Positions 3,334 through 15,524 of a DNA stretch of 64,000 nucleotides are shown here, one piece after another. The notes below the pieces were generated by a model, which saw only the letters and a list, made by a program, of their open reading frames with translations, did not search any database and had not been told where the DNA came from. The translations under genes were made by a program, and so were the position numbers. Source of the DNA: an uncultured Acidiferrobacteraceae bacterium (lineage in GTDB: Bacteria; Pseudomonadota; Gammaproteobacteria; Acidiferrobacterales; SZUA-150); NCBI GenBank assembly GCA_913009895.1, contig CAJVXY010000002.1:93279-157278 (forward strand). Direction: 5' to 3'. Within the stretch, counting starts at the first letter, position 1. Each line of letters starts with the position of its first letter.

Positions 3334-4311
3334 TTATGCCGATTGTGTACTCCCTGGTGTTAGCAGGTGTAGTAAATTTACGACCGCCAGTAGTAATAAT
3401 GCAGCCACTGCGTTATGGACAGTGACTACTGACAGTGGTAGCTCTGTTAAAACAGAAGTTACTCCCAGCAAAACCTGCAATACAAGAAATACAAGAATAC
3501 TGATGCTGGTGTTGTAGAATCGCTCGTTTAAACCCGACATTTTAATTGCGAGAACTGCCAGGTATATAAAGGTAATAAACGCACCTATCCTGTGCACCAT
3601 GTGTATTGTTAACTGGATATTTCCGGCAATAACCCTTCCCTGGTCGTCCACAGAGAGTCGACGCGATATATCGAAACCATCGCTTAAATTGGCAATAGCT
3701 GTCCAGTCACCGTTACAACCAAGCAGGTTTGTGCAAGCAGGTGCAGCAAAATTAGCACTCGTCCAGGCACCAAACATAATCTGGATAACCAGGATAACCA
3801 GGCCAAGCAGCACCCAGGGTTTCATTGTTGTGAACGCGTGGTTTACCCCCATTTCAAACGGAACTAATCGTTGACTCATCCACCACAGTAAAGCCAGCAT
3901 GGCCATGCCACCCAGCAGGTTTCCCAGTGTGACAATAGGCAAATCCGGTGATGGCGTGTTGTAACCCAGTACAGATAAAAAGACAGTGAGCCCGAATACG
4001 AGCAAAGGAATAAATACGCCAGCGCCCTGGGTAGCACGTCCTCGTAATGCCATATATGCGATACCCAGTACAATAAAGCCTAACAGGGAAGCGGCAATTC
4101 GGTGAATGACACCTGCCCATGTTTTAGGTACAACACTGCGTTCATGAACCAGTGATATTTGGCCATAACACTCCGGCCAGGGCTCACAACTTAAGCCCAC
4201 GCTATCAAGGCGCATATAGGCACTTAATACCACGGCAGCAAATGTCAGTAATAATGCCAGGTTAATCAGGAGTGAATAAAGGTTGGCGGTTGATTTGCTA
4301 TTTGTCACCAT
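3334..4311 (-). CDS. ctaA: Heme A synthase (COX15/CtaA family)
   Basis: Polytopic membrane protein with the Cys pair CEPWPECYG and the HR motifs (VIHRIAASL, HMVHRIGAF) characteristic of CtaA/COX15. Confidence 0.8.
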   Translation of the reverse strand: MVTNSKSTANLYSLLINLALLLTFAAVVLSAYMRLDSVGLSCEPWPECYGQISLVHERSVVPKTWAGVIHRIAASLLGFIVLGIAYMALRGRATQGAGVFIPLLVFGLTVFLSVLGYNTPSPDLPIVTLGNLLGGMAMLALLWWMSQRLVPFEMGVNHAFTTMKPWVLLGLVILVIQIMFGAWTSANFAAPACTNLLGCNGDWTAIANLSDGFDISRRLSVDDQGRVIAGNIQLTIHMVHRIGAFITFIYLAVLAIKMSGLNERFYNTSISILVFLVLQVLLGVTSVLTELPLSVVTVHNAVAALLLLAVVNLLHLLTPGSTQSA

Positions 4312-4926: not shown

Positions 4927-5466
4927 ATGAGCTCCCTTTTACCACCACCAGATCGAATCTGGTGGAAAGAGCCATTAGAAAGAGTAGAGCTAATCTGGGT
5001 CGCCATTGCACTGGTGTGGAGTATTGTTATGTTCTTCATGATGCCTTATTGGCATGTGTACGGAAAACAGAACGTGTCAAACGAGGCCTACAAAACCACG
5101 CCTGAAGCCTTTAAAGCCAAGACTGAAGCAATGGTCGAACAATACACGGTGCGGACAGAGACGGCCGGAAATATACCCGTCGTCAGACCTCCTGTGGGAG
5201 ATGTTTATTTACTGGCACGGTTGTGGGAGTGGTGGCCTATTTTGGAGCTGGAAAAGGACCAGAGCTACCGCTTGCATATTGCATCACTTGACTGGCAACA
5301 CGGTTTTTCACTGCAGCCCGCAAATATCAATCTCCAGGTATTACCTGGTTATGAGATGGTGGTGACCGTCACACCGAATAAGTCTGGTGAATACTCAATT
5401 GTTTGTAACGAATATTGCGGGATCGGCCATCATAGAATGATTGGCAAGATCTACGTAACGGAATAA
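4927..5466 (+). CDS. Heme-copper oxidase superfamily subunit II, CuA-type, ba3-like (single TM plus cupredoxin)
   Basis: CuA ligand pattern DWQHGF ... CNEYCGIGHHRM (H, CxxxCxxxHxxM). The C-terminus VCNEYCGIGHHRMIGKIYVTE closely resembles the Thermus ba3 subunit II C-terminus. At 179 aa with one TM helix it matches B-family architecture. Confidence 0.85.
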   Translation: MSSLLPPPDRIWWKEPLERVELIWVAIALVWSIVMFFMMPYWHVYGKQNVSNEAYKTTPEAFKAKTEAMVEQYTVRTETAGNIPVVRPPVGDVYLLARLWEWWPILELEKDQSYRLHIASLDWQHGFSLQPANINLQVLPGYEMVVTVTPNKSGEYSIVCNEYCGIGHHRMIGKIYVTE

Positions 5467-5478
5467 GGGGAGGAGGAT

Positions 5479-7170
5479 ATGGCAAATAACAACGAATTTC
5501 GCACCTGTCCGGATACCGGATTACAGTTTCACCGACCAGCTGAGACGCTAATGAAGTTAAACGCTGTGGTAGCAGTTGTTTTTCTGCTGGTAGGTGGCAT
5601 CCTGGGTTTATTGTTAGGGTTGACACGATGGCCGGCTATTCATTTGCTTGGCGCATCAGATTTTTACAAAGTACTGACACTCCATGGTATTGATGTCTTG
5701 ATTTACTGGATCATTTTCTTTGAAATAGCAGTACTTTATTTTACATCATCGACGTTATTGAAATGTCGGCTGGCAACACCGCGTATGGCCTGGCTGGCTT
5801 TTGCACTAATGTTGATCGGTGCCGTCACTAATAATGTTGCAATTTTGCAAGGCAATTCCAGTGTGATGTTTACGTCTTACGTACCAATGCAGGCAGACCC
5901 GATGTTTTATCTTGGCCTGATTCTGTTTGCTGTTGGGGCGCTCATTGCCAGTTTTGTTTTTCTTGGAACCCTGGTGATTGCCCGGGCCGAGAAGACATAT
6001 GAGGGGTCTATGCCGTTGGTGACTTTTGGTGCCCTGACAGCAGCTATAATTGCAATATTTACCATTGCCTCGGGCGCGATCATTTTAATACCGACATTTT
6101 TATGGTCGGTGGGCTTGATTGAAGGTATTGATCCGATTATGTACCGGGTGATCTGGTGGGCCTTCGGCCATTCCTCGCAGCAAATCAACATGGCCACCAT
6201 GGTTGCAGTGTGGTATGCCGTCGCTGCCGTTGCGTTTGGTGCCAAGCCTTTGTCAGAAAAAATGTGTCGCAGCGCTTTCCTGTTGTACATATTGTTCCTG
6301 CAACTCGCTAGTGCCCATCATATACTCGTGGATCCTGGCATTAGTTCAACCTGGAAAATATTTAATACCAGTTATGCCATGTACCTGGCGGTGCTTGCCA
6401 GTATGATTCATGGCTTGACAGTTCCAGGCGCAATCGAGGCCGCTCAGCGCAAACGGGGTTTCAATAAAGGTTTGTTCGAATGGTTGCGCAAGGCACCCTG
6501 GAGCAATCCCTCATTTTCCGGCGTATTCCTGTCTATCATTATTTTTGGGTTCCTGGGCGGCATATCAGGCGTAGTGATGGGGACTGAGCAAATTAACCTG
6601 ATTATCCATAATACCCTTTATGTACCAGGACACTTTCATGCGACAGTTGCTACCGGTACAACCCTGGCCTTTATGGCTTTAACGTATTGGTTAGTGCCGG
6701 TATTGTTTCGTCGCCAGGTAATTTTTCCAAAGCTTGCAAGTTTGCAACCGTACCTTTTTGGCTTGGGCATGTCAGGGGTCGCCTTGTTTATGATGGGCGC
6801 AGGAACACTTGGCATACCGCGACGGCATTGGGATATTACCTTCGCCGACTCACCATTGACTCATAATTTCCCGGAGATGGCCAACGCGTTGCTCGGTTTC
6901 ATGGGCGTATCAGTACTCCTGGCCGTGGTAGGTGGCGGCCTATTCTGTTTACTGATAGTAGGTTCATTATTATTTGGCAAGCGTTTGAGCCTGACTGAGA
7001 AGGGCGAAACGCCGTTGATAGCAGAACCCGTTACCAGTTACGAAGGTGTTGGAATTGGTAAAATAGTGGCACCGGGGACACTGGTGCTGGCGATGGTGTT
7101 TTTGACAGCATTCGTTCTCTACTATTTTATTAACTGGAAATTCCTGTCGCAGACCTGGGGTTTGAGTTGA
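5479..7170 (+). CDS. Heme-copper oxidase superfamily subunit I, B-family-like, lacking the helix-VI cross-link tyrosine; candidate NO reductase (sNOR/eNOR-type)
   Basis: 563 aa. Ligand His are H69 (LTLHG), H231 (GHSSQQ), H280/H281 (SAHHIL) and H385/H387 (PGHFHAT). These parallel ba3 H72/H233/H282/H283/H384/H386. Position 235, equivalent to ba3 Y237, is Gln. Confidence 0.85.
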   Translation: MANNNEFRTCPDTGLQFHRPAETLMKLNAVVAVVFLLVGGILGLLLGLTRWPAIHLLGASDFYKVLTLHGIDVLIYWIIFFEIAVLYFTSSTLLKCRLATPRMAWLAFALMLIGAVTNNVAILQGNSSVMFTSYVPMQADPMFYLGLILFAVGALIASFVFLGTLVIARAEKTYEGSMPLVTFGALTAAIIAIFTIASGAIILIPTFLWSVGLIEGIDPIMYRVIWWAFGHSSQQINMATMVAVWYAVAAVAFGAKPLSEKMCRSAFLLYILFLQLASAHHILVDPGISSTWKIFNTSYAMYLAVLASMIHGLTVPGAIEAAQRKRGFNKGLFEWLRKAPWSNPSFSGVFLSIIIFGFLGGISGVVMGTEQINLIIHNTLYVPGHFHATVATGTTLAFMALTYWLVPVLFRRQVIFPKLASLQPYLFGLGMSGVALFMMGAGTLGIPRRHWDITFADSPLTHNFPEMANALLGFMGVSVLLAVVGGGLFCLLIVGSLLFGKRLSLTEKGETPLIAEPVTSYEGVGIGKIVAPGTLVLAMVFLTAFVLYYFINWKFLSQTWGLS

Positions 7171-7291: not shown

Positions 7292-8161
7292 ATGCTGAGT
7301 TTACTCGTTAATGTTTTTAAACTTAGAATCGGCTTGCTGATTGCACTAACAGCGTTAGCCGGATTTGCAGTTACGCCTGGCAGGGATTTGGCATCCTGGC
7401 AAATTGCTGTTCTGGGCCTGCTGGTGCTGATGTCTTCAGCCAGTGCTGGTGCCTTTAACCAGTATGCTGAACGAGATCTGGATGCGAACATGAAGCGTAC
7501 CCGGAATCGGCCGTTTGTCACGGGTGAGCTCAATCATAATAGTACCTGGTTATGGGGTATTGCAGGATTATTGGTATTCGCCGTAACCACAGCTGCCTGG
7601 TTATTTAATGCAGCCACCGCATTTTATATTTTTATGGGTGCATTTGTGTATGCGGTGATTTATACCGTATGGCTTAAGAGAAGAAGTGTATTAAATATAG
7701 TTATCGGTGGTCTGGCGGGTAGTTTTGCAGTACTTGGCGGGGCTGCTGCTGCTGATCCCAACCTGGGTCCAGTGGCAATATTACTGGCAGTGGTATTATT
7801 TTTATGGACACCTCCGCACTTCTGGAGCCTGGCGATTGCCCTGCACAAGGACTATGCGGCAGCCAGGGTGCCAATGTTGCCCGTGGTAGTTGGCGATGCT
7901 GCTGCTGCTAAAATTATTTTTACCAATACGGTGTTGCTGGTAATTGCATCATTGGCACCGGTTTATTATGGCCTTGGCTGGGTGTATTTAATTTGTGCAA
8001 TGTCAGGCGGTATATATTTTCTTTATAAAAGCTATCAACTTATCTATACACCTACAAAAAAGATGGCGATGGCCAATTTTTTTGCCTCGATTATCCAGCT
8101 TTCCCTGATCCTGATTGGTGTTATGCTTGATACACAGTTTACAAGATGGGAAGTTTTTTGA
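7292..8161 (+). CDS. ctaB: Protoheme IX farnesyltransferase (heme O synthase)
   Basis: UbiA-family motif NQYAERDLDANMKRTRNRP in a polytopic protein of 289 aa. Confidence 0.85.
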   Translation: MLSLLVNVFKLRIGLLIALTALAGFAVTPGRDLASWQIAVLGLLVLMSSASAGAFNQYAERDLDANMKRTRNRPFVTGELNHNSTWLWGIAGLLVFAVTTAAWLFNAATAFYIFMGAFVYAVIYTVWLKRRSVLNIVIGGLAGSFAVLGGAAAADPNLGPVAILLAVVLFLWTPPHFWSLAIALHKDYAAARVPMLPVVVGDAAAAKIIFTNTVLLVIASLAPVYYGLGWVYLICAMSGGIYFLYKSYQLIYTPTKKMAMANFFASIIQLSLILIGVMLDTQFTRWEVF

Positions 8162-9000
8162 ACTTAAAGCAGAAAAAAGTTTTAATTTTTTTTGTTGTTT
8201 TATTGTTGTTTTTTTCTCCAGCACACTGGCTGGCAGCTGCGGAAACACCTGTAACCAGCAAACCTGAGTTACGGAAATTTGAAAAATCCTCGGCTTTGGT
8301 AACCAGCCAGGGCGCCATTGGCCACGTAACCGGTGATTATACGTTCTACGATCGCCAGCAGCGAAAGGTACTACTCTCAAGCTATCGCGGTAAACCCCTG
8401 ATCATAAGTTTGATATTTACAAGCTGCCATCATATCTGTCCGACAACTACACAAAATTTAGCGAATGTGGTTAAACTTGCCCAGGAGGTTCTGGGTGAAG
8501 ATAGTTTTAACATTGTTAGCATCGGCTTTGATGTACAAAATGACACGCCTGATGCGATGCGCAATTTTGCAATTCAACAAGGCGTGGATGAAATACCTGG
8601 CTGGGAATTTTTAAGTGCTGACGCACCTACAATAAATGCATTGACTGGTGAACTGGGTTTCCAGTTCTTTCCTTCGGCAGGTGGGTTTGATCATTTAATC
8701 CAAACCAGCCTGATCGATGCCGAGGGCGCTGTATATCGCCAAGTGTATGGTACAAAATTCAATACACCATTACTGGTAGATCCATTAAAAGAGCTGGTTT
8801 TTGGGCGACCGGTTAAAGGTTCGCTGGTAACATCGATACACAATAGAATTCGGCTGTTTTGTACTGTCTATGACCCGGCAAGTGGTCGTTATATTTTTGA
8901 TTACTCCCTTTTTGTCGGGATGATTATTGGTTTTATAATATTAATTTCAATTTCTATATGGCTGGTTCGTGAATGGCGAAAATCAGCCACAAGTAAATGA
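8146..9000 (+). CDS. senC: SCO1/SenC family copper chaperone, with N-terminal signal and C-terminal TM helix
   Basis: Thioredoxin-like CxxxC site (FTSCHHICPTT) plus a downstream conserved His (GGFDHLIQTSLID). The C-terminal hydrophobic helix is FVGMIIGFIILISISIWLV. Overlaps the ctaB stop. Confidence 0.75.
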   Translation: MGSFLNLKQKKVLIFFVVLLLFFSPAHWLAAAETPVTSKPELRKFEKSSALVTSQGAIGHVTGDYTFYDRQQRKVLLSSYRGKPLIISLIFTSCHHICPTTTQNLANVVKLAQEVLGEDSFNIVSIGFDVQNDTPDAMRNFAIQQGVDEIPGWEFLSADAPTINALTGELGFQFFPSAGGFDHLIQTSLIDAEGAVYRQVYGTKFNTPLLVDPLKELVFGRPVKGSLVTSIHNRIRLFCTVYDPASGRYIFDYSLFVGMIIGFIILISISIWLVREWRKSATSK

Positions 9001-9100: not shown

Positions 9101-10681
9101 TTGCTAGAAAGAACGCAGAGAAGTGGTCGACGACTCTTCGAATGGGTAGAGGCCGGATTCAATCGAATTGGCGGCCATCGCTGGAATCCATTTTATCAGC
9201 TCGGGGCCCTGTCATTTTTCTTTTTCTGGATCATTACTGTCAGCGGCCTGTATCTTTACATTTTCTTTAGAACTGGCACGACAGCAGCTTATGAATCAGT
9301 AGAATACCTGACTATTGATCAGTGGTATCTTGGCGGTGTGATGCGTAGCTTGCATCGTTACGCATCGGATGCGTTTGTAGTTACAATTGTATTGCATATT
9401 CTGCGTGAGTTCTTCATTGGTCGTTACCGCTACTTTCGCTGGTTCTCCTGGGTTACCGGTGTCCCGTTGCTATGGCTAACGTTTGCGGCGGGAATCGGGG
9501 GCTATTGGCTGGTATGGGACAGCCTGGCCCAGTACATTGCGATAACTACGGCTGAATGGCTGGATTGGCTGCCTTTTCTTACCGATCCGATTGCGCGTAA
9601 TTTTCTCAACCAGGCAAGCATGAGTGATCGATTCTTTTCACTACTGTCATTCCTGCATATCGCCATACCTTTATTCTTGCTATTGGGTATGTGGATACAT
9701 ATCCAGCGTATGACACTTCCTCGCTCCAATCCAACACGTATCCTGGCTGTGGGTACTATCTCGGCGCTGTTAGTGCTTTCGTTTATCCTGCCAGCCACGA
9801 GCCAGGAACCAGCCAACCTTGATAATCTTGTCTTTACGGTAAATCTTGACTGGTTTTATCTCAATTTTTACCCTTTGCTTGATAAATGGTCGGCTGGCAG
9901 CATCTGGGCACTGGTTTTTGGTGTTACATTGTTGTTAGTGGTGATGCCCTGGTTACCGCCTCACAAACCAGAACCCGTTGCCGTAGTCGATCTCGAGAAT
10001 TGCAATGGATGTGGGCGCTGTTTCGATGACTGTCCATTTGGCGCAGTTGATATGTTTCCACGTACAGATAATTTACCATTTTCCCATGAGGCCGTTGTTG
10101 ACAGCGCATTATGCGCCAGTTGCGGCATTTGTGTTGGTTCTTGCCCAACCGCAACGCCATTCAGGCGGGCGACAGCTTTGGTGCCAGGTATAGATATGCC
10201 GCAGTTAAAGATCGCGGATATCCGGGATAAAACCGTACAAGCCGCAGAAAAATTAACTGGTCATGACAGGGTGATAGTATATGGTTGTCGAAATGGGACC
10301 GACATAAACAGGTTACAGGGATCAGGCGTGGCGGTAATTTCATTACCGTGTATTTCTGCTTTACCGCCGTCTTTTATAGATTTTGTGATTGCACGTGGCC
10401 ATGCTGAGGGTGTGTTCCTCACAGGTTGTCAGCAGGGCGATTGTTACTACCGCTTGGGCATTGACTGGACAGAACAACGTATAGCCGGACTTCGTGATCC
10501 TGCGCTTCGAAAAAAGGTGCCACGTGAGCGTGTAGCCACATGCTGGTCCGGCCCGGTAGGATTTGCCAGGCAAAAAGCCGAACTGGTTTCATTCAGGGCC
10601 CAGTTGCTGGAAATGGGACCTAACAGAAGGAACGGTGCAATCATTAATAAAACCGATACACCTGACAGCAAAGGGGGGTGA
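9101..10681 (+). CDS. Fusion protein: di-heme cytochrome b-like membrane domain + 2x[4Fe-4S] ferredoxin + MvhD/FlpD-like domain
   Basis: Two helices each carry His pairs at i/i+14 (HRYASDAFVVTIVLH and HIAIPLFLLLGMWIH), as in bc1/b6f cytochrome b. These are followed by CNGCGRCFDDCP and CASCGICVGSCP. The last domain has VYGCRNG...LPCISALP...LTGCQQGDCYYRLG, which is MvhD-like. TTG start with AGGAG 8 nt upstream. Confidence 0.7.
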   Translation: MLERTQRSGRRLFEWVEAGFNRIGGHRWNPFYQLGALSFFFFWIITVSGLYLYIFFRTGTTAAYESVEYLTIDQWYLGGVMRSLHRYASDAFVVTIVLHILREFFIGRYRYFRWFSWVTGVPLLWLTFAAGIGGYWLVWDSLAQYIAITTAEWLDWLPFLTDPIARNFLNQASMSDRFFSLLSFLHIAIPLFLLLGMWIHIQRMTLPRSNPTRILAVGTISALLVLSFILPATSQEPANLDNLVFTVNLDWFYLNFYPLLDKWSAGSIWALVFGVTLLLVVMPWLPPHKPEPVAVVDLENCNGCGRCFDDCPFGAVDMFPRTDNLPFSHEAVVDSALCASCGICVGSCPTATPFRRATALVPGIDMPQLKIADIRDKTVQAAEKLTGHDRVIVYGCRNGTDINRLQGSGVAVISLPCISALPPSFIDFVIARGHAEGVFLTGCQQGDCYYRLGIDWTEQRIAGLRDPALRKKVPRERVATCWSGPVGFARQKAELVSFRAQLLEMGPNRRNGAIINKTDTPDSKGG

Positions 10682-10684
10682 GCC

Positions 10685-11077
10685 ATCATCTTAATTGAGT
10701 GGAAAGAAGAATTCTCTGTTGGCGTGCCGGGAGTTGATCATGAGCATAAAGTACTGGTTGATCTTTTGAACAGGCTTTATGAAAATTTGATGCGAGAGTC
10801 GACTGCTGAAGAGGTGGAAGAATTTCTTGGCGAGATTTACGCCAGGATATCAGCGCATTTTGCATTGGAGGAAAATATCATGCGCGAGCAACATTATGAC
10901 CAGTATAGTGAACACAAGGCGGACCATGAGCGGTTGCTGGACGAGATTCGTGACATCATGGATGACCATACTGCAATGGAAAATTCGGACAAGGACAAGT
11001 TTGCCGAACGCTTAAAATCATGGTTTGTTAATCACTTCAAGACCCAGGATGCCAGGCTTCATGGACGTTTGTCATAA
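10685..11077 (+). CDS. Hemerythrin-like (bacteriohemerythrin) protein; true start unclear
   Basis: Metal-ligand pattern VDHEH, HFALEE, HKADHE, NHFKTQD. The track ORF starts at GTG 10724, but the conserved N-terminal IEWKEEFSVGV lies upstream. It is reachable only from ATC/ATT codons (10685-10696) or by reading through the upstream TGA (10679-10681). Confidence 0.75.
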   Translation: MILIEWKEEFSVGVPGVDHEHKVLVDLLNRLYENLMRESTAEEVEEFLGEIYARISAHFALEENIMREQHYDQYSEHKADHERLLDEIRDIMDDHTAMENSDKDKFAERLKSWFVNHFKTQDARLHGRLS

Positions 11078-11158: not shown

Positions 11159-11704
11159 ATGATGACCAGGGTATTACAATATATAGGCCAGGTAGTAGCA
11201 TACGGAGGGTTCATTATTTTTGTCGGCTACTTGTCTGCTGCACCTGCCTATGTTCACCTGCAGCCAGGCCAGGCTCAAATAAAGCTTAGCTTTAGTCATG
11301 CGGGAAAGCCCGTCAGTGAATGTCGTGAACGTAGCGATGAAGAGCTTGCACGTCTTGCGCCTAATATGCGCGTAAGAAAAGTATGCCCCAGAGAACGTTC
11401 CGGTGTAGCTGTAGTGCTGGAGGTGGATGACAAGTTGTTGTATAGCGATATTTTACAACCCTCCGGCCTGAAAAAAGACGGGACATCAACAACATACAGA
11501 AAATTCACGGTTAAAGCCGGTAAGTATAAAATAAAAATAAAACTCAAGGATGACTTCCGGAAATCAACGACCATCAAAGATGTGTCAAAGTTAAATGCAG
11601 GTGATTTTAATTACACATATTCCCGGAAAGTCTATCTCGGTGCAGGAAAAATAATGGTCATTGATTTTAATAAGGAGGCAGATGGATTTGTTTTCAGTTT
11701 TTGA
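11159..11704 (+). CDS. Hypothetical N-terminally anchored protein (181 aa)
   Basis: One N-terminal TM helix (VVAYGGFIIFVGYLSAAPAYV) followed by a Lys-rich soluble domain that looks beta-rich. I recognise no family. Placed between the hemerythrin and the second heme-copper-like gene. Confidence 0.5.
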   Translation: MMTRVLQYIGQVVAYGGFIIFVGYLSAAPAYVHLQPGQAQIKLSFSHAGKPVSECRERSDEELARLAPNMRVRKVCPRERSGVAVVLEVDDKLLYSDILQPSGLKKDGTSTTYRKFTVKAGKYKIKIKLKDDFRKSTTIKDVSKLNAGDFNYTYSRKVYLGAGKIMVIDFNKEADGFVFSF

Positions 11705-11793: not shown

Positions 11794-13161
11794 ATGCAGG
11801 AAGATTTCATACTATCGGTACCAAAAGATAACCGTCGGGATTTAGCCAAAGGCTGGCTCTGGCTGGGTTTAATTTCTCTATTAGTATCAGGAATTTTTTC
11901 AGTTCTCCTGGTAGTCTTTCGCACGCCCTATATCCAGAATATTTTCTCCTCGGTAGATTTTTTTCGAACTGCTCTGGTTGTCCATGTAGATCTTTCTGTT
12001 TTGGTCTGGTTTCTTGCTTTTGGTGGCGTGTTCTGGAGTTTGAATTCCACTACCAGTTTCATACGGCTCGGTTGGTCAGCATTATTCTTTGCCACGCTGG
12101 GTACGATAGTGATGGTGCTGGCGCCATTTATTGGTAATGGCAACCCGCTGATGAGTAATTATATTCCTGTCTTGCAGGATTCAGTGTTTATAACAGGTTT
12201 GTTGTTTTTTGCATTTGGTATCACCTTGCTGGTTCTGCGAAGTATGTTTGCTATCCCACTGGTAGGGCTGCAAATTACAGGTGTTGGTTCATTACGTTTC
12301 GGCCTGAATACCGCTGCTATATCTGCAATTATGGCGCTGCTCGCATTTTTCTGGTCTTTTCTGGCTATGCCGGATTTTGTTACTGGAAAAGCCTTTTACG
12401 AACTCCTGTTTTGGGGTGGCGGCCACATGCTGCAATTTACATATACATTGCTCATGCTCGTCGCCTGGTTGTGGTTGGCTACTGCTTCGGGTCTCCGCAT
12501 TGCCCTGAGTCCAAGAGTTGTGCTGCTTCTTTTCATATTAGGTCTAATGGCGGTATTCACGGTTCCGCTAATTTATTATTCCTACAAAATAATTTCAGTT
12601 GAACACATTAAACTCTTTACCTGGTTGATGGCGTATGGTGGCAGCCTGGCCACACTACCATTGGCTTTGGCAATTCTTCACGGTTTTTTTATTAGCTCAC
12701 CAGCATCAGGATCACAGACACCCTTACGAGCAAGTTTGATCATGTCTATGATTTTATTTGGTGTCGGTGGTGTTATCGGTTTCCTGATCGAGGGGAGTAA
12801 CGTTACGATTCCCGCCCATTATCACGGTTCTATTGTCGGCGTTACATTGGCATTTATGGGGATGACGTATAATTTACTGCCGCGTTTTGGTTATAAGTAT
12901 CCTGATGTGAAATTGGCTCGTATTCAACCCTATATATATGGAGGTGGCCAGTTATTGCATGTATCAGGATTAGTATGGTCAGGAGGATATGGTGTCCAGC
13001 GAAAAGTTGCAGGTATTGAGCAGGGGCTCGACGACATGGAAAAAATTGCCGCGATGGGCTTGATGGGCCTGGGGGGATTGGTCGCGATTATAGGCGGACT
13101 GATGTTTCTCCTAGTGGTTTATAAAGCCATGGCAAACAGGAAAACGCAAGAAACAGCCTAA
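11794..13161 (+). CDS. Heme-copper oxidase subunit I-like polytopic membrane protein with incomplete metal-ligand set
   Basis: 455 aa and about 12 TM. Has LVVHVDL (H64), FWGGGHMLQF (H211) and IPAHYHGSIVG (H342/H344), at spacings reminiscent of HCO helices II, VI and X. There is no HH pair where helix VII would be; YY261-262 sits there. Confidence 0.55.
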   Translation: MQEDFILSVPKDNRRDLAKGWLWLGLISLLVSGIFSVLLVVFRTPYIQNIFSSVDFFRTALVVHVDLSVLVWFLAFGGVFWSLNSTTSFIRLGWSALFFATLGTIVMVLAPFIGNGNPLMSNYIPVLQDSVFITGLLFFAFGITLLVLRSMFAIPLVGLQITGVGSLRFGLNTAAISAIMALLAFFWSFLAMPDFVTGKAFYELLFWGGGHMLQFTYTLLMLVAWLWLATASGLRIALSPRVVLLLFILGLMAVFTVPLIYYSYKIISVEHIKLFTWLMAYGGSLATLPLALAILHGFFISSPASGSQTPLRASLIMSMILFGVGGVIGFLIEGSNVTIPAHYHGSIVGVTLAFMGMTYNLLPRFGYKYPDVKLARIQPYIYGGGQLLHVSGLVWSGGYGVQRKVAGIEQGLDDMEKIAAMGLMGLGGLVAIIGGLMFLLVVYKAMANRKTQETA

Positions 13162-13985: not shown

Positions 13986-15524
13986 ATGGTGGGCATATTC
14001 TTGCTCACGGTGAGTGCTGGTGTATTTGCTGGTGGTACACTGGAAACCTACCCTGAAATAAAAAATTTTTTCCCTGCTTTAACCCGTGTCGGTGATATTG
14101 CTGGCGAGCCGCCTGCAGCACCTGTGTACCAGCAAGGTAAACTTCTGGGATATGTATTTTCTACACAAGCAATAGCACCTATTCCTGCTTATTCGGGTAA
14201 ACCTATTAACATCCTGGTTGGCTTGAATCTTTCCGGACAGATAACGGGCCTTAAGATAATCGAACATCACGAGCCAATTTTATTGGTTGGCGTTTCTGAA
14301 AAACAATTAAAAGAATACATTGATCAGTACCAGGGCGTGGACATTTTTGATCGCGTCCGGGTAGGGGCAGAAAAGAAAGCGGGCTCAGTGGGTATTGACA
14401 CGATTAGTGGCGCGACCATTACTGTGATGGTCTCCAATGCCACTATTGTCAATTCTGCCAGAACCGTTGCGGCCAGGTACGGCATTACTCGTAGTAGAAA
14501 GTCGGGTAAAAGCTCGCCAGTAATTTTAACAAGACAGGCCCCGGTTGCGGCTGAAAAAGAACTTCCGGCAAATAACCCGGCTGAGACTCCCTTGGTCTCA
14601 GAAGCGCCAGACCTGGAGCGGGCCTGGGTCACCATCTGGGAAGGTCGTGCTATTGAGATTGGTATTTTGGTTTTTGCCCTGTTCTTATTGACAGCAATCC
14701 TGTTATTTCAGGATTGGATTGTACGACGACCAACCCTGTATGAATATTTACGGAATGGTTATTTATTATTTACTGTTTTTTTTATTGGTGGTTATGCGTT
14801 GGCACAGCTTTCTATTGTTAATGTTTTGACCTTTGTTCATGCTTTTGTCCATGACTTCAGGTGGGAAACCTTTGCCCTGGACCCCCTTATATTTATTCTC
14901 TGGGTATTTGTTGCATTCACTTTGTTGTTATGGGGGCGCGGGGTGTACTGCGGCTGGTTATGTCCATTTGGTGCTATGCAGGAATTGATAAACATGGTTG
15001 CCCGTCGCTTTAAGGTTAAGCAGTGGGAATTCCCGACTATGGTTCATGAGCGTCTTTGGGCAATAAAATACGTGGTGTTGATTGCATTGTTCGGCATCTC
15101 ACTACAGTCACTATCATTGGCAGAGTATTACGCAGAAATCGAACCATTTAAAACCACGATTCTGCGTTTTGATCGGGCATGGCCATTTGTGCTTTATGTG
15201 GTGGTCCTGTTAATGATTTCTATAGTCAATCGCAAGTTTTATTGTAAATATATTTGCCCCCTGGCAGCTGCCCTCATAATTCCGGCCCAAAACCGGGTTT
15301 TTGACTGGGTAAGAAGACGCAATGAATGTGGTAAACCATGCCAGGTCTGCGCTGATTTATGTGAAGTACAGGCGATCGCACCAACTGGTGAAATTAACAA
15401 GAATGAATGTCATTATTGTCTGGACTGCCAGGTAACATACTGGAATGAATACAAATGCCCACCCCTGGTCCAGGAACGTAAAAAGCGGGAACGGCATATT
15501 GCTGTTCATAGCCTTTCGAATTAA
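13986..15524 (+). CDS. nirI: NosR/NirI-family membrane protein (periplasmic FMN-binding domain, TM domain with CX3CP motifs, C-terminal polyferredoxin)
   Basis: FMN_bind-like GIDTISGATITV, CGWLCPFGAMQE and CKYICPLAA, and C-terminal CGKPCQVCADLCE / CHYCLDCQ...CPP. Sits directly 5' of nirS. It is shorter than classical NosR, and its start is uncertain. Confidence 0.75.
   Translation: MVGIFLLTVSAGVFAGGTLETYPEIKNFFPALTRVGDIAGEPPAAPVYQQGKLLGYVFSTQAIAPIPAYSGKPINILVGLNLSGQITGLKIIEHHEPILLVGVSEKQLKEYIDQYQGVDIFDRVRVGAEKKAGSVGIDTISGATITVMVSNATIVNSARTVAARYGITRSRKSGKSSPVILTRQAPVAAEKELPANNPAETPLVSEAPDLERAWVTIWEGRAIEIGILVFALFLLTAILLFQDWIVRRPTLYEYLRNGYLLFTVFFIGGYALAQLSIVNVLTFVHAFVHDFRWETFALDPLIFILWVFVAFTLLLWGRGVYCGWLCPFGAMQELINMVARRFKVKQWEFPTMVHERLWAIKYVVLIALFGISLQSLSLAEYYAEIEPFKTTILRFDRAWPFVLYVVVLLMISIVNRKFYCKYICPLAAALIIPAQNRVFDWVRRRNECGKPCQVCADLCEVQAIAPTGEINKNECHYCLDCQVTYWNEYKCPPLVQERKKRERHIAVHSLSN

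Follow-up and report, generated by a model that had tools for sequence, protein, structure and literature searches.

A haem-copper subunit-I-like protein encoded in an eNOR operon and lacking the helix-VII histidine pair

What might a second protein of the subunit I type, with part of its catalytic ligand set missing, be doing at the end of an operon for a nitric oxide reductase? The question is raised by a 64,000-nucleotide stretch of DNA (the window: contig CAJVXY010000002.1, positions 93,279 to 157,278 of the forward strand, GenBank assembly GCA_913009895.1) from an uncultured Acidiferrobacteraceae bacterium. Here the last long open reading frame (ORF) of a co-directional cluster beginning at 4927 encodes a 455-amino-acid (aa) relative of subunit I of the haem-copper oxidoreductases (HCOs), hereafter the HCO-like protein. 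The ORF, 11794..13161 on the forward strand, begins with an ATG, a start codon that is credible because the N-terminus is conserved in homologues, and its translation holds the motifs LVVHVDL, FWGGGHMLQF, PLIYYSYK and IPAHYHGSIVG. An earlier description made from the letters alone (the sequence-only reading) had picked out the gene as an HCO relative with an incomplete ligand set. When codons and translation were checked, the ORF, its length, the quoted motifs and the positions of H64, H211, H342, H344, Y261 and Y262 all proved correct.

The operon in question can be named with some precision. The 563-aa subunit I encoded upstream has Gln at the position of the oxidases' cross-linked Tyr, as follows from its GHSSQQ motif; replacement of the active-site Tyr by Gln is diagnostic of the eNOR family (PMC8756737), and an operon syntenic to the window cluster has been classed as eNOR in Ferrigenium (bioRxiv 10.64898/2026.01.22.701106). 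As this neighbour is an eNOR, the HCO-like protein is a paralogue inside an eNOR operon. The eNOR comes with its own CtaA, CtaB and SCO1 and its genes adjoin a nirS/haem d1 cluster, so that denitrification in this organism probably runs through eNOR.

Fold, haem ligands and the helix-VII site

Membership of the HCO superfamily, within the B-family/eNOR lineage, is well supported by sequence profiles and by the predicted structure. The Pfam COX1 profile (PF00115) matches the protein at 43.3 bits against a cut-off of 34.8, with residues 17-420 corresponding to profile positions 2-425 of 436, and it matches 73 of 78 diverse family members. When a profile built from 78 diverse homologues was compared with PDB sequences, it aligned over its full length with subunit I of the Thermus thermophilus ba3 oxidase (E=2.3e-15); 18 of the 19 PDB sequences found at E<=10 were variants of this Thermus subunit, the remaining one being 7deg, a haem-copper terminal oxidase. 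Against the same PDB sequences, a single-protein phmmer search gave no match and a profile of 20 close homologues gave a spurious match alone (E=1.2).

An AlphaFold2 (AF2) model computed on the 78-homologue alignment (pLDDT 94.2, pTM 0.94) contains twelve long helices, and Foldseek ranked ba3 subunit I top among its structural matches (E=6.5e-9, TM-score 0.75), followed by A-type oxidases and cbb3. Comparison with the operon's own subunit I gave E=2e-15 by BLASTP, and hhalign against a profile of 55 eNOR I orthologues returned Prob 100 (E=6.9e-49, 451 columns, 24% identity). The HCO relationship proposed by the sequence-only reading was thus upheld in profile-profile comparison and in structure prediction alike. 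Its placement of LVVHVDL, FWGGGHMLQF and IPAHYHGSIVG on helices II, VI and X was borne out in the alignments to ba3 and eNOR. By profile and by model, the B-family/eNOR lineage is closest in both sequence and fold.

Residue equivalences were taken from a HMMER alignment to ba3 and from hhalign to eNOR I, most of which agree, and conservation was scored in 124 diverse representatives of 50%-identity clusters sharing no more than about 55% identity (window positions are given in Table 1). In these alignments H342 corresponds to ba3 H384, the proximal ligand of the high-spin haem, and H344 to ba3 H386, an axial ligand of the low-spin haem. Both low-spin axial histidines, the high-spin proximal histidine and one B-site histidine are present, as had been surmised, and the check on H64, H211, H342 and H344 among homologues found them 98-100% conserved. 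W207 is conserved in 100% of the representatives and Q214 in 99%. The Arg pair with which HCOs bind the haem propionates has its counterpart in R403-K404. From this pattern we infer that the HCO-like protein would bind two haems in the manner of subunit I. In the HMMER alignment Q214 falls on the cross-linked Tyr237 of ba3, and in the hhalign alignment on the first Gln, not the second, of eNOR GHSSQQ; with the oxidase Tyr position occupied by Q214 or F215, there is no cross-linked Tyr as in the A/B/C O2 reductases.

What has gone is the histidine pair of helix VII. The sequence-only reading had placed two tyrosines where that pair is expected, and the absence of HH stands; the exact equivalents are L259/I260 for ba3 H282/H283 (HMMER) or I260/Y261 for the eNOR pair (hhalign), so that the tyrosines lie off by one or two residues. 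Nor did the tyrosines prove to be a family feature: Y261 is 52% conserved and the Y262 position is usually Leu, which makes the YY pair a detail of this lineage. Across residues 255-266, HH occurs in one of the 124 representatives and any His in 26, and the description of the protein as a compact HCO relative without a canonical CuB/FeB site therefore extends to the family at large. H271 and E270 were considered as substitute metal ligands and set aside, being invariant in close homologues but conserved family-wide in only 28% and 48%, respectively.

With the two helix-VII histidines lost, the HCO-like protein cannot hold a canonical CuB/FeB. The K-path residues of ba3 (S309, T312, T315, Y244 and Y248) are apolar or Trp here, and helix VIII (282-299), apolar along its length, offers no conserved polar residue and no conserved K-type proton path. 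Taken together, the missing CuB/FeB ligands and the lack of a K-type path make a second NO or O2 reductase of known kind unlikely.

Gene neighbourhoods, fusions and partner proteins

The HCO-like gene shows conserved linkage to three others: one for a cytochrome b joined to iron-sulfur and FlpD domains (cyt b-FeS), one for a 181-aa anchored protein (p181) and a small 69-aa ORF. Among 80 genome loci collected by tblastn with the window proteins, most share the order eNOR II-eNOR I-CtaB-SCO1-cyt b/FeS-p181-HCO-like, which is conserved across beta- and gammaproteobacteria. Genes for cyt b-FeS occur in 71 of these loci, SCO1 in 61, eNOR I in 56, CtaB in 48, CtaA in 27 and nirS in 25; p181, the anchored partner that the sequence-only reading had recognised at 11159-11704, is real and likewise accompanies the HCO-like gene in 71 of the 80. 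The place immediately 5' is most often taken by p181 (45 loci) and next by cytochrome b (23 loci); a divergent CtaA fills it in 5-7 loci and CtaB in 2. In five of the 80, CtaA lies 3' on the same strand. A second set of 80 metagenome loci, scored for genes within four ORFs of the HCO-like gene, gave cyt b-FeS in 24, SCO1 in 20, hemerythrin in 18, CtaA in 15 and CtaB in 8. Adjacency to CtaA is found in gamma- and beta-lineages and in one judged from its neighbouring genes to be alpha/endosymbiont-like.

Gene fusions join the same partners. One protein combines cytochrome b, without its FeS part, with the HCO-like domain (P0121, 761 aa, locus L084); another carries p181 at the C-terminus of cyt b-FeS (685 aa, L124); and a third, P0234 (748 aa), encoded after a COX2/COX1 pair, fuses the HCO-like protein to CtaB.

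Outside eNOR operons, a Nitrospirae metagenome-assembled genome (MAG) has the order COX3-SCO1-COX2(cyt c)-COX1 (A-type, 481 bits)-CtaB-HCO-like, with CtaB directly upstream, and in a Magnetococcales MAG the HCO-like gene is divergent from COX3-SCO1-COX2-COX1 (434 bits)-SCO1-CtaB. These positions beside A-type oxidase operons mean that the family is not specific to eNOR. On one further contig a divergent CtaA abuts the HCO-like gene, and its neighbours, a 1446-aa ankyrin-repeat protein and BufA1, would point to an alphaproteobacterial or endosymbiont origin of that contig. In the Nitrospirae locus (L021, 11903-13240) the genes that come after the HCO-like one encode an Rrf2 regulator and a protein with a weakly cytochrome bd subunit-I-like N-terminus and a C-terminal cytochrome c domain.

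A separate arrangement is seen in Rickettsiales-like small genomes (L169 7001-8889, L170 and L088; 1.55-Mb contig), where the HCO-like gene overlaps the start of folE, the gene for GTP cyclohydrolase I. No respiratory or haem genes lie near it at these three loci; a CtaA upstream of the L169 copy was considered and rejected, as the 326-aa neighbour concerned has no Pfam match. Several short contigs of distant members were uninformative from gene content alone, but CcsA fragments were then detected on them by tblastn.

Six of 150 listed representatives form a subclade in which a C-terminal transmembrane (TM) helix and a TPR domain are added. Their genes lie directly 3' of ResB-like and CcsA genes at L172 (4233-6239) and L173 (9001-11136), and a CcsA fragment detected by tblastn is immediately 5' on two further contigs, L082 and L083, making four contigs in all. 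Multihaem cytochromes c of 790-817 aa are encoded nearby, together in L172 with a TPR protein of the CcmH/CycH type. Such loci have the look of clusters devoted to cytochrome c maturation, with an HCO-derived protein among their products.

The most constant partners are themselves unusual. For p181, 1076 homologues were found at E<=0.001; no Pfam domain was detected in any of the 120 listed, every one of which, where named, is a 'hypothetical protein'. Alignment of the homologues places a TM helix at the N-terminus. C55 and C76 are invariant in it and H47 and M70 nearly so, and the Cys, His and Met residues fall in a 'CRER...EELA.LAPNMR...CPRER' segment that could form a disulfide or a Cu(I)-type metal site. 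Its AF2 model (pLDDT 92.5) consists of a TM helix and a beta-sandwich, for which a Foldseek search of the PDB gave no significant match, the best being CARDB and CBM41 beta-sandwiches at E=0.01; the idea of a degenerate cupredoxin/COX2 or Cox11-like protein found no support in that search and was dropped. There is no CuA motif in the alignment, and in the absence of a PDB fold match p181 is not demonstrably a cupredoxin subunit II. Because p181 can follow the C-terminus of cyt b-FeS in one fused chain, joined by the TM helix of p181, the sandwich and the FeS domains would face each other across the membrane, the sandwich presumably in the periplasm, which would fit the conserved Cys pair.

The cyt b-FeS protein (9101-10681) is the probable electron-transfer partner of the HCO-like protein. 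Two H-x13-H pairs can be read from its sequence, along with 'DWFY' where bc-type cytochromes b have PEWY, and many betaproteobacterial loci carry two copies of the gene. The small 69-aa ORF, on which the sequence-only reading is silent, was matched by tblastn in 77 of about 173 loci. Of 161 loci, 62 have it within 600 bp 3' of the HCO-like gene (median distance about 30 bp), 39 of them on the same strand. It has no family match, and no NCBIfam model matches it, p181 or the HCO-like protein. The N-terminus of one homologue of the small ORF (L126) weakly resembles AI-2E/PerM transporters, and this may account for the 'PerM' label on the next gene in Ferrigenium. A hemerythrin gene lies near the HCO-like gene in 10 of the 80 genome loci, as well as in the 18 metagenome loci noted above; its product might, as a binder of O2 or NO, be linked to O2-dependent haem A synthesis.

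Weighing the possible functions

The reading that we tentatively prefer, whilst stopping a little short of calling it probable, is that the HCO-like protein is a redox-active accessory for haem handling or maturation, working with the cyt b-FeS protein and, in this organism, on behalf of eNOR. It is ranked first because the recurrent neighbours are haem-cofactor biogenesis genes and not one respiratory enzyme. The HCO-like gene sits among ctaB, sco1 and ctaA and not between structural genes, and the fusion to CtaB, the CtaB directly upstream in Nitrospirae, the adjacency to CtaA and the TPR subclade behind ResB/CcsA all speak for a maturation role.

The protein would then sit in the membrane with its two haems and assist oxidoreductases that depend on haem O/A, here the eNOR at 4927-7170, and would form a complex there with the cyt b-FeS-FlpD protein, p181 and probably the small two-TM protein. 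The cyt b-FeS protein would relay electrons between the low-spin haem and either the cytoplasm or the quinone pool, and the high-spin pocket, with its distal His and Gln, would hold or redox-poise haem O/A en route from CtaB/CtaA to eNOR. The b-haem of CcmF and the TPR chaperone CcmI in cytochrome c maturation would offer an analogy. In the haem lyases CcmF/CcmI and NrfE/NrfG, a membrane protein with a bis-His b-haem acts on transit haem together with a TPR chaperone, and Surf1 and CbaX, whose genes accompany those of oxidases, are dedicated to haem a insertion. The CcmF/CcmI-type comparison is drawn because of the TPR fusions, the ResB/CcsA adjacency and the links to CtaA and CtaB; for all of these systems it is a functional analogy only, with no sequence or fold relation to the HCO-derived protein. 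A maturation factor of this kind would represent a new class of assembly protein for haem-A enzymes, and would provide a handle on the assembly of eNOR, an abundant and recently recognised N2O source, and on the supply of haem A at low oxygen.

A number of points weigh against a maturation role. The near-perfect conservation of both haem sites, of the Arg/Lys pair and of W207, H211 and Q214 is what would be expected of a working redox enzyme, and haems buried as they are in subunit I would be hard to hand over, a poor fit to a chaperone. An electron-transfer chain with terminal chemistry of its own would account at least equally well for the cytochrome b fusion and the FeS/FlpD domains, and in the ResB/CcsA clusters the HCO-like protein could instead serve the multihaem cytochrome as its redox partner in the membrane. 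The Rickettsiales-like copies stand alone by folE, without a haem-biogenesis neighbour, an arrangement explained by none of the hypotheses considered here. Haem binding is itself deduced from alignment, and the homology of the Ferrigenium gene from synteny and a KEGG Orthology (KO) label, not from aligned sequence.

The main rival, which we regard as possible but unlikely, is a copper- and FeB-free respiratory module, catalytic or electron-transferring, in which a quinol or cytoplasmic donor would feed cyt b-FeS, then the low-spin and finally the high-spin haem, where a haem-only site assisted by H211 and Q214 would reduce NO, or O2 at low tension, and so supplement or protect eNOR. The cyt b::HCO-like fusion and the cytochrome b gene immediately 5' in 23 of 80 loci favour such a chain, as do the 96-100% conservation of all residues for two haems and a distal pocket and the position of the cluster right next to nirS and the genes for haem d1. 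In Ferrigenium the syntenic gene is, moreover, transcribed in all nitrate-Fe(II) cultures, its product is present in the proteome of one such culture, and a redox supercomplex around the cyt b proteins has been proposed there (bioRxiv 10.64898/2026.01.22.701106). Set against this, two of the three B-site ligands are apolar throughout the family, no proton path is conserved, and eNOR II has a CuA entry site of its own, as read from its sequence. Family members are found in the absence of cyt b as well, next to A-type oxidases, CtaA/CtaB or ResB/CcsA, and in MAGs of Rickettsiales, a group not expected to respire NO. Were the protein nevertheless catalytic, it would be the first copper- and FeB-free enzyme on an oxidase scaffold.

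Loss of the catalytic metal site and co-encoding with HCO operons of two families would also suit a purely structural pseudo-subunit that docks to eNOR or another HCO, organises a complex or supercomplex and keeps its haems for folding only; the Ferrigenium counterpart has indeed been named 'eNOR scaffold protein of unknown function' (bioRxiv 10.64898/2026.01.22.701106). We think this improbable: H211, Q214 and W207 line the former active site and their 99-100% conservation is hard to explain by docking, the CtaB, cyt b and TPR fusions and the ResB/CcsA context imply haem handling or electron transfer, abundance in Ferrigenium is below that of eNOR I and II, and stand-alone copies exist. Less credible still is a membrane gas sensor or buffer, whose five-coordinate haem, set beside a distal His and Gln much as in a globin, would bind O2 or NO, either as a signal or to sequester the gas, in concert with the hemerythrin of the cluster. 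In the alignment a distal His and Gln do adjoin a His-ligated haem, a hemerythrin gene lies in the window operon and in the minority of loci counted above, and the gene is close to nirS and a NosR/NirI-like gene; yet no output or signalling domain is found in the HCO-like protein or conserved beside it, hemerythrin is absent from most loci, and the haem-biogenesis contexts and fusions are left unexplained.

The eNOR literature poses the puzzle of how denitrifiers make a haem-A-dependent NO reductase without oxygen. It is tempting, if decidedly far-fetched, to picture the HCO-like protein as a copper-free, haem-only HCO, fed by cyt b-FeS, with an unprecedented chemistry that serves anoxic haem A synthesis. 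Such chemistry could, for example, be the generation or delivery of the oxidant required by CtaA (O2 from NO, dismutase-like, with hemerythrin as carrier) or the oxidation of haem O. If true, it would resolve how this reductase is made in the absence of oxygen.

Relatives, distribution and genomic setting

How, then, does the HCO-like protein compare with described relatives? Thermus ba3 subunit I (1EHK, 3S8F) is the closest solved structure by profile and by fold, and its H72, H233, H384, H386 and R449/R450 all have equivalents here; the differences lie in H282/H283, replaced by L259/I260, in Y237, replaced by Gln in the HMMER alignment, and in the K-path residues, replaced by apolar residues or Trp. 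With the eNOR subunit I of the same operon (5479-7170) the protein has in common the 12-helix fold, the haem ligands, the Arg pair and a Gln beside the helix-VI His, but it lacks the helix-VII HH and the polar K-type channel, is about 100 residues shorter and is not paired with a CuA subunit, and its family also occurs away from eNOR.

The eNOR family was reportedly described by Hemp and Gennis, and a description is given by Murali et al. 2024 (PMC11214002). According to the same paper, three active-site histidines are conserved in all HCO families except gNOR, which has Asp in place of one and retains the other two, is still predicted to bind a metal and has a CuA-less partner subunit (PMC11214002). 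As the only described HCO family with altered B-site ligands, gNOR resembles the present one in that respect; the HCO-like family differs in having two histidines replaced by apolar or aromatic residues, and a partner without detectable cupredoxin similarity. An assignment to gNOR was rejected, with two histidines lost and no conserved Asp at their positions.

Other candidates fared no better. The NnrS profile (PF05940) matched neither the HCO-like protein nor any of 78 family members, and the C-family branch of cNOR, qNOR and NOD, marked by closeness to cNOR or cbb3 and by an FeB held by three His plus Glu, was set aside on ligand pattern and nearest relatives, there being no cNOR, qNOR or cbb3 among the PDB profile matches and ba3 being ranked by Foldseek above A-type oxidases and cbb3. 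The 'N2O red' family was likewise rejected on ligand pattern and nearest relatives, not by direct sequence comparison. The earlier conclusion that the protein could not be placed among A/B/C oxidases, known NOR families or NnrS is thus sustained, as the three-His pattern fails and NnrS gives no match. A further point of comparison is NOD, the putative, qNOR-like NO dismutase, which is likewise related to the HCOs and in which the active site is remodelled and a chemistry other than reduction has been proposed; it derives from qNOR, in the C-family branch, and is about 800 aa long, whereas the HCO-like protein is B-type-related, at 455 aa.

The family is large. A search of 5.8 billion proteins gave more than 7400 matches, of which the top 120, from which names and lengths were taken, are all about 455 aa long, at least 64% identical and mostly from gammaproteobacterial MAGs; they are called 'cbb3-type cytochrome c oxidase subunit I' or 'hypothetical protein'. 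Clustered at 50% identity, the family comprises at least 1475 groups with E<=1e-3, of which 631 reach E<=1e-30, and at least 600 species carry the family in a species-level genome scan. Named carriers include Gamma- and Betaproteobacteria, Nitrospirota, Magnetococcales and Rickettsiales MAGs, and the gene is present in the isolates Noviherbaspirillum sp. ST 5-3, Pelomicrobium sp. G1 and Seongchinamella sediminis. The routine annotation of its members as 'cbb3-type' or 'cytochrome c oxidase subunit I' will inflate oxidase and NOR counts in metagenomic surveys.

Whilst the fold and superfamily are known, the variant is undescribed as a family in the literature searched: it is not among the HCO families of Murali et al. 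2024 (PMC11214002), and searches for CuB-less HCOs and subunit-I-like paralogues returned nothing specific. The sole mention found is the 2026 preprint on Ferrigenium straubiae, where the counterpart (IMG 2878407321, KO K02274) is given its scaffold name without a ligand analysis (bioRxiv 10.64898/2026.01.22.701106). The Ferrigenium gene order (eNOR II, eNOR I, haem o synthase, sco1, cyt b-like, hypothetical, scaffold gene) is that of the window, and from synteny and annotation, as distinct from sequence alignment, the scaffold protein is almost certainly a member of the HCO-like family.

In the Ferrigenium proteome the scaffold product scores 28.0 against 31.6 for eNOR I and II, and its transcripts lie about 6- to 45-fold below those of the eNOR genes in 28 °C nitrate-Fe(II) replicates (bioRxiv 10.64898/2026.01.22.701106), levels that suggest an accessory and not a stoichiometric subunit. 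A large, widespread and, by way of this syntenic gene, expressed family that has lost two histidines and kept both haem sites contradicts the three-His generalisation as it has been stated (PMC11214002).

Table 1. Positions in the window of the HCO-like gene, its functional residues and the surrounding genes
Feature	Position	Strand	Basis or remark
Haem A synthase CtaA, divergent, upstream of the cluster	3334-4311	-	Pfam COX15-CtaA, E=3.5e-39
eNOR subunit II, 179 aa, COX2-like	4927-5466	+	Pfam COX2; CuA motif C-x3-C-x3-H-x2-M read from sequence
eNOR subunit I, 563 aa	5479-7170	+	Pfam COX1; GHSSQQ, AHH, HFH
Haem O synthase CtaB	7292-8161	+	Pfam; NCBIfam TIGR01473, 269 bits, above cut-off
SCO1/SenC copper chaperone	8146-9000	+	Pfam SCO1
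Cytochrome b + 2x[4Fe-4S] + FlpD/MvhD-like domain	9101-10681	+	Pfam, NCBIfam
Bacteriohemerythrin	10724-11077	+	Pfam, NCBIfam
p181, 181-aa anchored protein	11159-11704	+	ORF; no Pfam/NCBIfam match
HCO subunit-I-like protein, 455 aa, 12 TM helices	11794-13161	+	Pfam COX1, AF2, Foldseek, profiles
H64, helix II	11983..11985	+	Aligned with ba3 H72, low-spin haem axial ligand; 99% conserved
H211-M-L-Q214, helix VI	12424..12435	+	H211 aligned with ba3 H233, CuB/FeB ligand; 100% conserved
L259-I260-Y261-Y262, periplasmic end of helix VII	12568..12579	+	Where HCOs carry two CuB/FeB His
H342-Y343-H344, helix X	12817..12825	+	98%, 97% and 98% conserved
R403-K404	13000..13005	+	Aligned with ba3 R449/R450 and with the eNOR RR pair; 96% and 97% conserved
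Small 69-aa ORF, 2 predicted TM helices	13257-13466	-	ORF list
NosR/NirI-like protein, 512 aa, FMN_bind + Fer4_5	13986-15524	+	NCBIfam NosR, 674 bits, below the cut-off of 1000

Downstream of the cluster lie the NosR/NirI-like gene, nirS and genes for haem d1 biosynthesis. The NosR/NirI-like gene, a short one of its kind, precedes nirS, and it recurs 3' of the HCO-like gene in 12 of the 80 genome loci.

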